DNA of 51,929 bases from a virus (lineage: Duplodnaviria > Heunggongvirae > Uroviricota > Caudoviricetes). The DNA lies in the IMG/VR virus record IMGVR_UViG_2541047794_000002, positions 1 to 51,929 of that record. The stretch is one strand, 5' to 3'. The translations under genes and the position numbers were made by a program. Positions within the stretch are counted from its first letter, which is position 1. The number at the start of each line of letters is the position of its first letter. The notes under the pieces were generated by a model. It was not told the origin of the DNA and did no database searches. It saw only the letters and a list, made by a program, of their open reading frames with translations. Shown here in pieces: positions 24,938 through 36,620 of this stretch.

Positions 24938-25213
24938 ATGTCGATGTACACAACCGCCCAGCTGCTGGCGGCAAATGAGCAGAAATTTAAGTTTGATCCG
25001 CTGTTTCTGCGTCTCTTTTTCCGTGAGAGCTATCCCTTCACCACGGAGAAAGTCTATCTCTCACAAATTCCGGGACTGGTAAACATGGCGCTGTACGTTT
25101 CGCCGATTGTTTCCGGTGAGGTTATCCGTTCCCGTGGCGGCTCCACCTCTGAATTTACGCCGGGATATGTCAAGCCGAAGCACTTAGCATGGCTTTCTGA
25201 GGCTTTCGTGTAG
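24938..25213 (+). pseudogene. E: Major capsid protein E, 5' fragment (codons 1-82), fused to 9 foreign codons by the element insertion
   Basis: MSMYTTAQLLAANEQKFKFDPLFLRLFF...TPGYVKPKH matches the lambda gpE N-terminus, then diverges into LAWLSEAFV-stop at the insertion junction. Confidence 0.85.
25173..25182. repeat. Left copy of the 10-bp direct repeat AGCCGAAGCA (att core, left junction)
   Basis: Identical 10-mer at both insertion junctions; lies in E codons for KPKH. Confidence 0.75.
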
Positions 25214-25345
25214 TTGCTGGTTTTTACACTTAATCTTTTGATAATAAAGAATAAGTTTATCTGGTGCTTTCACTGAATTTTCCTCGTTATCTGTGTGTTG
25301 CAATCATCTCTGTATTGCAGCTTGTATTGCTTTTTGGGGCTAAAA

Positions 25346-26581
25346 ATGGCTGGCGAGAACAAACTGAGCGACAAAGCGCTTAAAGGATATCTGGGGAAAC
25401 CCAGAGAAAAGCAGATCACCATTGCTGATGGAAAGGGGCTTTCTATTCGTGTGAGTACTAAAGGGGCTGTAAGCTTTGTTTTCTTCTACAGGTTAGCAGG
25501 TGGCCGGGCTGCTCCGGTCTGGCTAACGTTGGGTAAATATCCTGATATGTCACTCAAACAGGCAAGGGAAAAGCGCGACGAGTGCCGTGGTTGGTTGGCT
25601 GACAAACGTGATCCGCGTATCCAGATTAAGATTCAGGCTGAAGAACGCTTAAAGCCGGTCACAGTGGAGGATGCACTAAATTACTGGTATGAAAATTACT
25701 GTAAGGTGCGTCGTAAAACTCATGCTGTAACGCTTGGCAGATTTCGAAAGCATATCTTTCCCTATATCGGTCATTTGCCCGTAAATGACACTCACCTATA
25801 TGAATGGCTGGACTGTTTTGACCGAATTAAACGTAATGCACCAGTTATGGCGGCGTATGTTTTTTCTGACACTAAATTAGCTCTTCGTTTTTGTCGGGTA
25901 CGCCAGTACGCGACGTGTGATGCTTTAAAGGATTTGCGCATGAGTGATGTGGGGCAGATTGCAGGTAAGCGGGATCGGGTTCTGGATGAAGCCGAACTCG
26001 GCCAGCTCTGGAAGGCAATTTTTGTCGAGCCTGATTTAAAACTAATGTCTGAATACACGCGAAAAATGTTTGTGCTTTGTACAGTATTTGGATGTCGAAT
26101 GAGTGAAGCCCGATTATCAGAATGGAGCGAATGGGATCTCGAAAGTTGGGTTTGGACTGTACCAAAAGATCACTCAAAAACTGGTGTTGAAATCGTCAGA
26201 CCAGTACCTGAAATTCTACGACAGTGGGTAACGGATGTTCACGAAGAGACAAAACATACTGGTTATGTGCTGGGAAGTCTGCGAATTAGAGAAAGCGTAA
26301 GCAAGATTGGGGGGAAAATCGGTAAACGTTTGGGCCATGAAAAACAATGGTCACTACACGACCTTAGAAGAACGCTATCTACTCATCTAAGTGATCTCGG
26401 TGTTGAATTTTATGTAGTAGAACAACTGTTAGGCCATGCGCTACCTGGCGTGGCAGGTGTTTACAACCGGAGTAAGTTTATGGCTAAAAAACTGGATGCT
26501 CTGGAACTCTGGACTACATATCTCAATAGCATCGCAGGTGCTGATTCAAAAGTGACAATCCTCAAACAAAAGGTTGGTTAA
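25346..26581 (+). CDS. int: Tyrosine integrase of the element
   Basis: 411 aa from MAGENKLSDKALKGYLGKP...; C-terminal catalytic motifs (HDLRRT, LLGHA...YNR) of phage-integrase family; adjacent to the left junction. Confidence 0.9.
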   Translation: MAGENKLSDKALKGYLGKPREKQITIADGKGLSIRVSTKGAVSFVFFYRLAGGRAAPVWLTLGKYPDMSLKQAREKRDECRGWLADKRDPRIQIKIQAEERLKPVTVEDALNYWYENYCKVRRKTHAVTLGRFRKHIFPYIGHLPVNDTHLYEWLDCFDRIKRNAPVMAAYVFSDTKLALRFCRVRQYATCDALKDLRMSDVGQIAGKRDRVLDEAELGQLWKAIFVEPDLKLMSEYTRKMFVLCTVFGCRMSEARLSEWSEWDLESWVWTVPKDHSKTGVEIVRPVPEILRQWVTDVHEETKHTGYVLGSLRIRESVSKIGGKIGKRLGHEKQWSLHDLRRTLSTHLSDLGVEFYVVEQLLGHALPGVAGVYNRSKFMAKKLDALELWTTYLNSIAGADSKVTILKQKVG

Positions 26582-26582
26582 C

Positions 26583-26810
26583 ATGAAAAAAATGGCAATT
26601 GTTGATAAAAAGGGTCTGGAGTACATTCCTAACATTGACCGAATGATCCGTGAGAAAGAATGTCGGGAGCTAACCACTCTTGCGAACAGCACACGCTGGA
26701 AGCTGGAGAAGGAAGGAAAATTTCCTAAGCGGATCAAGATTGGTTCCACTGCTGTTGCATATCGTCTTTCAGAAGTGCAGGCATGGATTCGAGGTGAGTG
26801 GGTAGTTTAA
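26583..26810 (+). CDS. alpA: AlpA-family transcriptional regulator
   Basis: 75 aa MKKMAIVDKKGLEYIPNIDRMIREKECRELTTL...; immediately follows int, as in Gram-negative PICIs. Confidence 0.75.
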   Translation: MKKMAIVDKKGLEYIPNIDRMIREKECRELTTLANSTRWKLEKEGKFPKRIKIGSTAVAYRLSEVQAWIRGEWVV

Positions 26811-26879
26811 ATTATCTCAGAATAAAATATTATGAATTACTGATTTGAGAATTTGTACTCAAATCAGTAATAACATTCT

Positions 26880-27416
26880 TTATAAGAGATTAAATCCAAA
26901 TAAAGAGTAATCATATACCGGGGTGCATTGCATCCCACTGAATATGCTGATGTTTTTTTCTATTTCTATCCTTTTTTCAATAAGTTGTTGTATATTTTTA
27001 CAGTACAATTTGTGTGTGATGTTATTATCGTAAGCCTGATATAGCAACGTCAATGTTGATGCTATGAAACATGCAGAAAGAAAATGAACTAGTACATGTG
27101 AGCGTTTTTTGGTTGTCCATGATGCATTCGCTTGTGAAATATAAATCATTCTGAGAATGATAATGATGATAGACAGTAACAGACCACTCAATAAAATAAG
27201 TATTGGGTTTGCGTATTTAATTAATGGTTGAGAGCAAAAAACTATTATAGCTCCTGTGACTGCGTATGAGAAAAAGGAGTAATTAAACTTCTTACTCCTT
27301 CTCTCAAGTATTTTAATTTCATCTTGCGTGGGGGTTTTAGATGCCTCCAATATAAGTTTATTAAATGTTTCTGTTATCTTGTTTTTTGTGTTTGTGGCTA
27401 TTTTTTTTAGATTCAT
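26880..27416 (-). CDS. Unknown AT-rich membrane protein (about 3 predicted TM segments); candidate cargo/exclusion gene
   Basis: 178-aa ORF with three long hydrophobic stretches; much lower GC than flanking genes; opposite strand to int/alpA. Confidence 0.55.
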   Translation of the reverse strand: MNLKKIATNTKNKITETFNKLILEASKTPTQDEIKILERRSKKFNYSFFSYAVTGAIIVFCSQPLIKYANPILILLSGLLLSIIIIILRMIYISQANASWTTKKRSHVLVHFLSACFIASTLTLLYQAYDNNITHKLYCKNIQQLIEKRIEIEKNISIFSGMQCTPVYDYSLFGFNLL

Positions 27417-35000: not shown

Positions 35001-35011
35001 CGTAGTACGCT

Positions 35012-35287
35012 ATGACTGAATCCGAACTACTGAAAGTAATCTGCCATGCTGGTGGAGTCAGCCACCAGCATGACGAACAGGCCACGCAGCCGGGCAGTGT
35101 CACCGCTGAAAATTACGCTCGTGTGGTTGCTGAGGTTATGTGGCGTGACGGTATAGAACTGAACGGACAGGATTGCTTAGTCATCCGCACCAAAGTGCTG
35201 GCTATACTGGCAGCTAGGCGGAGGCAGGGACAACGCCAGAACGTTGCATCGTACCAGTGGAAGAAGCCTGACAGACTGCGGCGATAA
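35012..35287 (+). CDS. Hypothetical protein
   Basis: 91-aa ORF downstream of terS. Confidence 0.35.
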   Translation: MTESELLKVICHAGGVSHQHDEQATQPGSVTAENYARVVAEVMWRDGIELNGQDCLVIRTKVLAILAARRRQGQRQNVASYQWKKPDRLRR

Positions 35288-35689
35288 CTCTTTGATTTTC
35301 TCGACGGCCCCAAAATGGGCCTTACCATAGCCAGCTAATAAATGAGCAAGCCTCAAAAGTGAGGTTTGTGGCCGTTTGGCCTATTCATATGCTAACTCGT
35401 TGATATTCCTGACGACGCAAATTTACGCCTTGTGGCTGGTAGTCGAATTGCAAATTTGCAACTCGACTATGAAACTACCTGTAGTTTGGGTAGTAAAAGC
35501 AACACACTGATTTTGGGGCTTCTTCGCGATACCTAATATTATGGTATCGGTGGAAGAGATATCGTTTCTCATAGGTTAGCACCGAGGGCGGAGTTCCGCC
35601 CTCATCGAAAAATTGCTTACGAGTCGTCAAAATAAATTAATCGACTGAGTATAATGATTAACTAATTGCTCGTGTTACTTCATTATACG

Positions 35690-36451
35690 TTATTTCCCAT
35701 CTTTAAGGTTTAACCAAGTGTTAATTAAAAAAAGAGCCATTGAGCCTGATAAATTTACTGCAAGTTCGGCATGCCTTGGGGATGGCTTAATTGATGAGCT
35801 GTTCGTTCCATGTGCATCACCGAGTTTATTACGAAGAGTACCTAACCCATTTACAACTGCAGAACAACCGCCGAGAATTTGTTTGAAGATATTTTCAGTA
35901 TGTTGGTCGGCAGATAGGTTAAGTTCTTTTGAAAGAGTTTTATAAAGCTCTGACATTTCAATATTTTTATTATTATACTGAATGCCCATATCATCAAGAA
36001 TGTGTTTGCAAACTGTTTCAAGAAGTGTTCTTGCGGAGGTTATCGCACCATCCGGATCTGTATGGCGCCGTTCAAGTGCTTTTATCCAAACGGCGTGGAC
36101 TCCATCCTCGTTAAACTTTCTTAATACATCAGATATGTCTTCATCCGCTGGAGCTTTATTTTTCCCTTCTAGATAGTCCAGCATCGGCTGAAATGCCTTA
36201 TAAATCAAATCTCTCCGGGGGGCATACTTTTCAGTCTTTTTTATAAATCCCCAAAATTCTTTTAGTGAGCGATTAGTTCTCACAAACTCTGGTAATAGCT
36301 GATGTAAAGGAGGATTTTGTAAGAAATATGTTCTTAGAAGCAAATAATCATTATTAGCTTCATCCTGGGCTCCTGTAGCTCTTGCAATTAGTATGTTTTG
36401 AAGCGCTACTGCGCGCTCTAGGTCATTTTGAAGGGTATCTATAATATTCAT
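35690..36451 (-). CDS. Predicted abortive-infection-type protein with C-terminal HEPN-like R-x6-H motif (Abi_C/AbiJ-like); candidate anti-phage cargo
   Basis: 253 aa, AT-rich, opposite strand, at the right end of the element. C-terminal LRNKLGDAHG contains an R-x6-H motif as in HEPN RNase domains. Confidence 0.65.
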   Translation of the reverse strand: MNIIDTLQNDLERAVALQNILIARATGAQDEANNDYLLLRTYFLQNPPLHQLLPEFVRTNRSLKEFWGFIKKTEKYAPRRDLIYKAFQPMLDYLEGKNKAPADEDISDVLRKFNEDGVHAVWIKALERRHTDPDGAITSARTLLETVCKHILDDMGIQYNNKNIEMSELYKTLSKELNLSADQHTENIFKQILGGCSAVVNGLGTLRNKLGDAHGTNSSSIKPSPRHAELAVNLSGSMALFLINTWLNLKDGK

Positions 36452-36610
36452 AACAAATCTTTATTCACTTCATTTGTGGGTTGATAATTGAATGGTTTGT
36501 ACATTGATTTCTGTGTATTGCAGTGTGTATTGCAACATAGCCATTCAGGTAGAGATTATGCTCTATTTTTCCTCTTATATCATTCACATACTTACACCAT
36601 TGACTCATGT

Positions 36611-36620
36611 AGCCGAAGCA
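36611..36620. repeat. Right copy of the 10-bp direct repeat AGCCGAAGCA (att core, right junction)
   Basis: Identical to 25173..25182; followed by E sequence resuming in frame (HEVNPQMTL...). Confidence 0.75.

Follow-up and report, generated by a model that had tools for sequence, protein, structure and literature searches.

A phage satellite embedded in the capsid gene E of a lambdoid prophage is a member of the published HE-PICI family

Helper-embedded phage-inducible chromosomal islands (HE-PICIs) were described by Tommasini, Mageeney and Williams (NAR Genom Bioinform 2023, published 2022-2023; PMC10111431), who report 491 of them at 14 late-gene sites. The founder of the family, Eco567.11capE (11capE below), is an 11-kb PICI in gene E of a lambdoid prophage of E. 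coli NRG857c; it brings a capsid gene of its own and has an identity block of 10 bp. Its site is named E:Phage_cap_E:80, and 201 elements are found there, with helpers at several chromosomal attB sites (PMC10111431). Here, we describe a satellite of 11,438 bp that interrupts gene E, for the major capsid protein, in the helper prophage in IMG/VR record IMGVR_UViG_2541047794_000002. The whole stretch of 51,929 nucleotides, referred to as the window, holds a lambdoid prophage of which both ends are cut off. The satellite belongs to the HE-PICI family and occupies the site E:Phage_cap_E:80 described for the founder. A first-pass annotation of this DNA took the arrangement to be undescribed, which is not the case; the finding itself is real and was correctly read.

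The behaviour of the founder is known from experiments. After mitomycin C treatment the composite of prophage and satellite excises and replicates, and the satellite then excises precisely, as followed by quantitative PCR and deep sequencing. It leaves 42-98% of the composites 2-3 h after induction, which restores E and forms attB and attP (PMC10111431). The authors point out that E is unexpressed until excision, that late transcription probably enters the satellite, and that the capsid gene of the satellite is a back-up copy. The family is recognised by a doubled TGTATTGC motif (tgTGTATTGCantgTGTATTGCa) on each side of the attP centre, at 81 +/- 2 bp upstream and at 132 +/- 2 bp downstream of it, and the HE-PICI integrases are reported to form one branch of a larger clade holding mostly PICIs and P4 (PMC10111431).

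In the window, the 10-mer AGCCGAAGCA is found at both ends of the satellite, see Table 1, and the match extends 0 bases further on either side. This core covers codons 79-82 of E. Read from its start, the 5' fragment contains 82 residues of E followed by nine foreign codons, LAWLSEAFV, and a stop; homologous genomes annotate it as 'major capsid protein, incomplete'. When 25183-36620 is removed in silico, ...TPGYVKPK joins HEVNPQMTL... and a single intact open reading frame (ORF) of 341 aa is recovered from the ATG at 24938. The restored protein is lambda-E-like, and its residues 5-339 align with positions 1-328 of the 329 in the Phage_cap_E profile from Pfam (E=8e-72). E is thus disrupted at about position 80 of this profile and without a replacement sequence, as in the published site group. 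The integrase, alpA and primase genes are all on the + strand, i.e., in the same orientation as the interrupted E, and the GC content, about 0.58 for the late genes on either side, drops to 0.38-0.50 within the insert. The first-pass annotation had read this as a PICI-like satellite inserted site-specifically into a lambda-type helper E, with a 10-bp direct repeat as the core, and had suggested the deletion as a check; every part of this structure that was tested holds. One detail needs correction, as the 3' fragment was said to resume at HEVNPQMTL from 36613. The frame does resume with these residues, but the right-hand codon of His-82 is 36619-36621.

The recombination module agrees closely with that of the founder. 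The integrase (start at about 25346 as annotated in relatives) has 99.5% amino acid identity over 411 aa to the 11capE integrase WP_000896726. A tree is therefore unnecessary for its placement, and its sequence assigns it to the E subclade of the HE-PICI clade. AlpA and its 11capE counterpart agree at every position over 75 aa (100% identity). The window has exact double TGTATTGC cores in just two places, 36514-36533 and 25311-25330, and the doubled arm motifs lie 81.5 and 131.5 bp from the attP centre, i.e., within the published ranges. The sequences flanking attL and attR differ little from the published HE-PICI alignments, and attL agrees at almost every base with the supplement. The supplementary table of that paper has the core, written agccgaagca, 85 times in its text, with helpers at icd, tRNA-Arg, proP and thrS. 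At the homologous position, the capsid gene of the satellite itself reads AGCCAAAAAG, which matches the core at just 6 of 10 positions. Self-integration is thus unlikely, as the authors of the HE-PICI paper also argued (PMC10111431).

We propose that this is a phage satellite whose tyrosine integrase targets the 10-bp core at E codons 79-82, and that it therefore lives inside its helper prophage, in the orientation of the late operon. Our estimate of the probability of this reading is about 0.93.

The same arrangement is found in many other genomes. A left-junction probe of 1 kb (500 bp of D/E and 500 bp of the element) was searched against 5,426 complete E. coli genomes. The junction between the 5' fragment of E and the integrase gene is present at full length in 170 of them, with up to 99.8% identity among the best matches; the isolates belong to many lineages and come from humans, animals and water. 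The right junction, including the Abi gene, is found at full length in 40 genomes. The integrase module occurs in 175 genomes and is joined to the 5' fragment of E in 170 (~97%), while the reconstructed empty E site is intact in 3,098 genomes. A full-length close copy of the satellite is present in none of the 5,426 genomes, the best match having 83% coverage at 93% identity.

For any assembly, it is a general possibility that an interruption of this kind is an artefact of joining two unrelated contigs. However, both junctions recur in independent complete genomes, they are precise at the 10-bp core with the reading frame restored, and in NRG857c the same junctions have been confirmed with PCR and deep sequencing (PMC10111431). 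A chimera has thus virtually no chance of being the explanation, and misassembly, which the first-pass annotation had asked about, is excluded by the recurrence. That recurrence equally excludes a one-off accident. It can still be speculated that an ordinary chromosomal PICI landed off-target in E, without any specific relationship to the capsid gene, since HE-PICI integrases occasionally use chromosomal sites (28 cases, among them a tRNA-Phe group whose integrase is very similar; PMC10111431). This is very improbable, as almost all genomes with the integrase module have it at the E site, as the 201 published instances at this site have helpers at several attB sites (PMC10111431), and as the spacing of the attP arms is exactly that of the HE-PICI family. 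The same counts bear on the comparison of the E position with chromosomal sites, another point raised at first pass.

Table 1. Coordinates of the satellite, its junctions and the helper genes discussed in the text (positions in the window).
Feature	Position	Strand	Evidence or remark
Helper cos	18776..18848	+	exact lambda cosN GGGCGGCGACCT at 18808-18819
Helper Nu1	18997-19542	+	
Helper gpA	19517-21442	+	
Helper major capsid gene E, 5' fragment, codons 1-82	24938..25182	+	open frame continues to stop at 25213
attL core AGCCGAAGCA, 10-bp identity block	25173..25182	+	sequence match; block listed in Supplementary File 1 of PMC10111431
Tyrosine integrase (Arm-DNA-bind_3 and Phage_integrase)	25295..26581	+	domain matches
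Doubled arm motif TCTGTATTGCAGCTTGTATTGCT	25309..25331	+	starts 131.5 bp downstream of core centre
AlpA (excisionase/regulator)	26574..26810	+	Pfam Phage_AlpA E=3e-15
178-aa protein, no confident family	26880..27416	-	88% identical to 11capE homologue
YlcI/YnfO family protein	27767..28069	-	NCBIfam NF041551 E=8.5e-20; also annotated in 11capE
Icd-like host cell-division inhibitor homologue	28278..28643	+	NCBIfam NF033153 E=5.6e-22
DUF4222 protein	29252..29551	+	family match
Primase-helicase, D5-type (D5_N, DUF5906, Pox_D5)	29548..31299	+	
Iteron origin	31309..31541	both orientations	8 exact and 4 one-mismatch copies of CCTCTACC
ssb, frameshifted	31840..32246	+	4-bp deletion relative to 11capE ssb
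Satellite E-family major capsid protein	32511..33551	+	42% identical to helper E; 84% to 11capE capsid
Satellite D-family head decoration protein	33561..33902	+	40% identical to helper D
Second AlpA-family helix-turn-helix protein, 114 aa	33912..34256	+	Pfam Phage_AlpA E=2e-9; PDB 8c3t AlpA family E=4e-11
Satellite cos, cosQ/cosN-like, overhang GGGCGGAAGGCG, then non-lambda cosB	34281..34353	+	
Nu1-family small terminase (TerS), 183 aa	34449..35000	+	36% identical to helper Nu1
91-aa protein, no assigned function	35012..35287	+	conserved beside terS in relatives
AbiJ-like / Abi_C abortive-infection cargo gene	35690..36451	-	Pfam Abi_C E=1e-23; PADLOC AbiJ E=2e-21
Doubled arm motif TGTGTATTGCAGTGTGTATTGCA	36512..36534	+	ends 81.5 bp upstream of core centre
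attR core AGCCGAAGCA	36611..36620	+	sequence match
Helper capsid gene E, 3' fragment	36621..37401	+	

The satellite is similar to 11capE in its left part and at its site. The target codon in the lambda-type E and the position of the 10-bp block are the same, the first 3.7 kb are 97% identical in DNA, both elements are about 11 kb, co-oriented with the late operon and have doubled arm motifs at equal distances, and both carry an E-like capsid gene of their own and a D-like decoration gene (84% and 94% identical, respectively). However, the two elements differ in their core allele, AGCCGAAGCA in the window and AACCCAAGCA in 11capE, both of which are listed in the paper. Further, the satellite has a Nu1-type small terminase (TerS) and a non-lambda cosB, while the founder is without TerS and keeps a lambda-type cosB, and the cargo is AbiJ-like here but consists of HEPN and DUF262 genes in the founder. 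The primase is just 48% identical to that of 11capE, i.e., it represents a different replication module, and ssb is frameshifted only in the satellite of the window. These differences are modular, and judged by its sequence the satellite is a mosaic.

The gene order, int-alpA, variable zone, primase with iterons and late genes, is that of the published four-zone plan, and also that of Gram-negative PICIs in general, which have int and alpA, a variable regulatory zone, a primase with an adjacent origin and a late zone within about 10-15 kb, and lack tail and lysis genes (Fillol-Salom et al. 2018). All the gene classes listed by the first-pass annotation are present, i.e., an integrase by the left junction, alpA, a primase-helicase with an iteron origin, packaging genes and lower-GC cargo, together with the satellite's own E-family capsid gene.

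The 178-aa protein and the YlcI/YnfO and Icd-like genes correspond to the 'Bro' variable zone of PMC10111431. The Icd-like gene is annotated in the 11capE locus and in the E. coli WP8-S17-ESBL-12 element. In the window, it is the C-terminal part of a program-called ORF of 304 aa (27729-28643), which is probably over-extended across the minus-strand YlcI/YnfO gene and the Icd-like gene. Small ORFs lie between this zone and the primase, alongside the DUF4222 gene. C4/isrK immunity RNAs have been reported in some HE-PICIs (PMC10111431). None is found in a permissive Rfam scan of the element, whose only match is a sub-threshold one to the SymR antitoxin RNA at 28211-28283 (-), with 35 bits against a gathering threshold of 61 (E=0.0011), antisense to the 5' end of the Icd-like gene. 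At gathering thresholds, Rfam has no match in the whole window.

In the replication zone, CCTCTACC is clustered: it has eight exact copies in the 52-kb window, and every one falls within 31314-31537, directly 3' of the primase gene. This cluster is an iteron origin. Downstream of it, one CAGT of the CAGTCAGT repeat is lost around 31949 in ssb, which splits the ORF in two. The split gene is either a pseudogene or the result of a sequencing error. Promoter and terminator scans gave no enrichment over shuffled sequence and were not used.

Among the satellite ORFs with a family match there are no portal, protease, large terminase, tail or lysis genes, so the element is a satellite and not a phage. 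It has capsid, decoration and TerS genes, and is thus also distinct from the cf-PICIs, which carry a full head set of capsid, protease, portal, adaptors, TerS and large terminase (TerL) (Alqurainy et al.). Apart from 73 bp of cos, it has no counterpart in 50,697 phage records.

The closest published parallels for the late zone are EcCICFT073 and the Gram-negative cos-type PICIs (Fillol-Salom et al. 2018, 2019; PMC6739421), which share the int-alpA-primase-late plan and the lambdoid helpers. As in EcCICFT073, cosQ and the cosN flanks are conserved between satellite and helper, cosB is unrelated, and a packaging-specificity gene follows just downstream of cos. However, EcCICFT073 is at a chromosomal site, and its Rpp protein binds the helper TerS to redirect packaging. 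Rpp proteins are 144-153 aa long with a winged helix-turn-helix N-terminus and are encoded just after cos, whereas the gene at this position in the satellite encodes a 183-aa Nu1-family protein. It aligns to the helper Nu1 over its full length; the C-terminal two-thirds are most conserved, while the N-terminal DNA-binding part is divergent.

Two candidates for an Rpp homologue were considered and rejected. For the helix-turn-helix protein upstream of cos, a search of solved structures matched only an AlpA-family protein. For TerS, the same search gave 0 matches at E<=1, in a library for which the structures of RppC and of the lambda TerS DNA-binding domain that the Rpp paper describes were not confirmed, and the protein is a full-length member of the Nu1 family.

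The overhang of the satellite cos was also considered as an orthogonal packaging specificity. In a comparison of PhiR46_1 (2985-3225) with window positions 18760-19000 and 34265-34452, the identical GGGCGGAAGGCG is found in this free phage, which has a lambda-type cosB and Nu1. The overhang is thus a natural allele and no evidence of orthogonality. Two 12-nt cohesive-end alleles, GGGCGGCGACCT and GGGCGGAAGGCG, exist among lambda-like phages whose Nu1 is near-identical (93%), and the satellite has the latter, unlike its own helper.

Two further elements are related in their late zones. The E-site HE-PICI of WP8-S17-ESBL-12 is 99% identical to the satellite in the late zone and the Abi cargo. 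Unlike the satellite, it has a TIR gene (locus 4984-5859) in its variable zone; with the same AbiJ-like cargo at the other end, this indicates that defence genes occupy both variable ends of the HE-PICI family. The second element is a chromosomal PICI by phoQ in O157:H7 FRIK944, which has the same late order of capsid, decoration, small helix-turn-helix protein, cos, TerS and small ORF, with ~86% nucleotide identity over terS. However, it lies in the chromosome and not in a prophage, and has a RepA-type helicase and not a D5-type primase; it also carries ssb and PerC. Capture of terS from an O157 prophage was considered and dropped, as the O157 match is this other PICI. Related terS sequences match in about 1,000 of the 5,426 genomes.

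The satellite also resembles P4, the satellite of P2, in its size of about 11 kb, its AlpA-type regulator, primase-helicase and Icd/Eta-like zone, and probably in cos packaging by the terminase of the helper. P4 integrates at a tRNA-Leu gene and not inside its helper. It has no capsid gene and resizes P2 capsids with Sid, and unlike P4, the satellite has no detected C4/isrK immunity RNA.

The satellite lies inside a helper prophage with lambda-type late genes. Upstream of it are exo, bet, an S24-type CI repressor, CII, O, P, cos, Nu1, A, B, C and D, and downstream FI through J followed by a tail fibre gene; the stretch of ORFs at 17054-18404 probably holds the lysis genes. The late genes checked, i.e., Nu1, A, B, C, D, FI, V, H and J, all have their full length. 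Over the early region (71-18666), the identity to 4A7, a sequenced free phage, is 98.9%, and PhiR phages match about 80% of the left half (183-25182) at 96-97% identity. The near-identity to free phages and the full-length late genes indicate that the backbone is that of a viable phage type.

From these parts, the following life cycle can be suggested. In the lysogen, E is split and the satellite would be silent. Upon SOS induction the CI-type repressor of the helper would be inactivated, and the composite would excise and replicate, as shown for the founder. Late transcription of the helper would probably run from Nu1...D and the 5' fragment of E into int-alpA, by Q-antiterminated read-through. 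Int and AlpA would then recombine attL with attR at AGCCGAAGCA to give an 11.4-kb circle and an exact E, a product obtained here in silico and in the founder by experiment. The circle would replicate from the iteron origin with its own primase-helicase and be packaged from its own cos. Recognition of the satellite-specific cosB is probably the task of the Nu1-type TerS, which would bring in gpA, the large terminase of the helper, as well as its portal and tails, while the E-like and D-like proteins probably contribute to capsids, and the AbiJ-like gene would act as a defence cargo. The first-pass annotation held that the insertion disables capsid production of the helper. E is indeed split, but 'delayed' fits better, as excision restores E in the founder.

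Several observations weigh against this proposal. The evidence for this particular copy is its sequence, and the roles of the TerS, capsid and decoration proteins are what we infer from their families. The ends of the helper with its int and att lie beyond the window, so its completeness is unproven, and the 4-bp frameshift in ssb may indicate some decay. Neither plaque-forming helper nor satellite particles were recovered from the founder lysogen (PMC10111431). Gram-negative PICIs are induced by a helper phage and move at high frequency in helper-derived particles (Fillol-Salom et al. 2018), but such transfer is thus not demonstrated for the HE-PICI family. Further, according to a work cited in PMC10111431, knockout of the capsid gene is tolerated in another E. 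coli PICI.

Some of the same observations could suit a fossil, in which helper and satellite both decay and the insertion now does no more than keep a dead prophage knocked out for good; such a lock on the prophage may be of benefit to the host. The broken ssb would agree with this, as would the position of the helper ends outside the window, and so would the truncated appearance of many HE-PICI helpers and the lack of infectious particles from the founder (PMC10111431). However, the parts for recombination, replication and packaging are intact, i.e., Int, AlpA, both att cores, four arm half-sites, the primase, the iterons, cos and TerS, and so are the late genes of a helper whose early region is nearly that of a free phage. 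We therefore consider a fossil unlikely, and prefer a satellite that uses its helper's E as its integration site.

The helper has some additional features. A low-GC block at 8700-13200, 3' of O and P, lies in the nin region, with ren, a YbcK-like large serine recombinase (9739-11265), an esterase (11615-12658, -) and an EmrE-like gene. With 99.5% identity to 4A7, Lambda_4C10, Perceval and PhiR47_2, all of them free lambdoid phages, it is a standard moron block and not a second insertion. A porin of the OmpC/PhoE family is encoded at 15168-16310 (-; NCBIfam OmpC E=1.5e-156), as in some lambdoid phages. Between the CI repressor and the recombination genes, a 287-aa protein (4540-5403, -) has a full-length match to PHROG 5147, of unknown function, and otherwise only weak matches to the PADLOC candidate PDC-S42 and a LAPAL-motif family. 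No tRNA genes were found in the window.

[quoted passage not shown] The additions made here are modest. One is another HE-PICI genotype, without a full-length near-identical copy in the complete E. coli genomes, and another is an independent figure for occupancy, with the junction occupied in 170 genomes and the site intact in 3,098. The third is a lead, as TerS-bearing members have a swapped cosB while the TerS-less founder keeps that of the helper.

A full-length Nu1-type TerS sits in the satellite at the position of rpp in EcCICFT073. Tentatively, and with more doubt than confidence, we suggest that this variant may have swapped the Rpp-style hijack for a TerS of its own that reads its own cosB and recruits the helper gpA. 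Together with the split helper E and its own capsid and decoration proteins, this could give it a head start in both capsid supply and packaging. The origin of Rpp proteins is a question left open in the Rpp paper (Fillol-Salom et al. 2019). If the suggestion is true, TerS-bearing PICIs could be the ancestral state from which Rpp proteins evolved.

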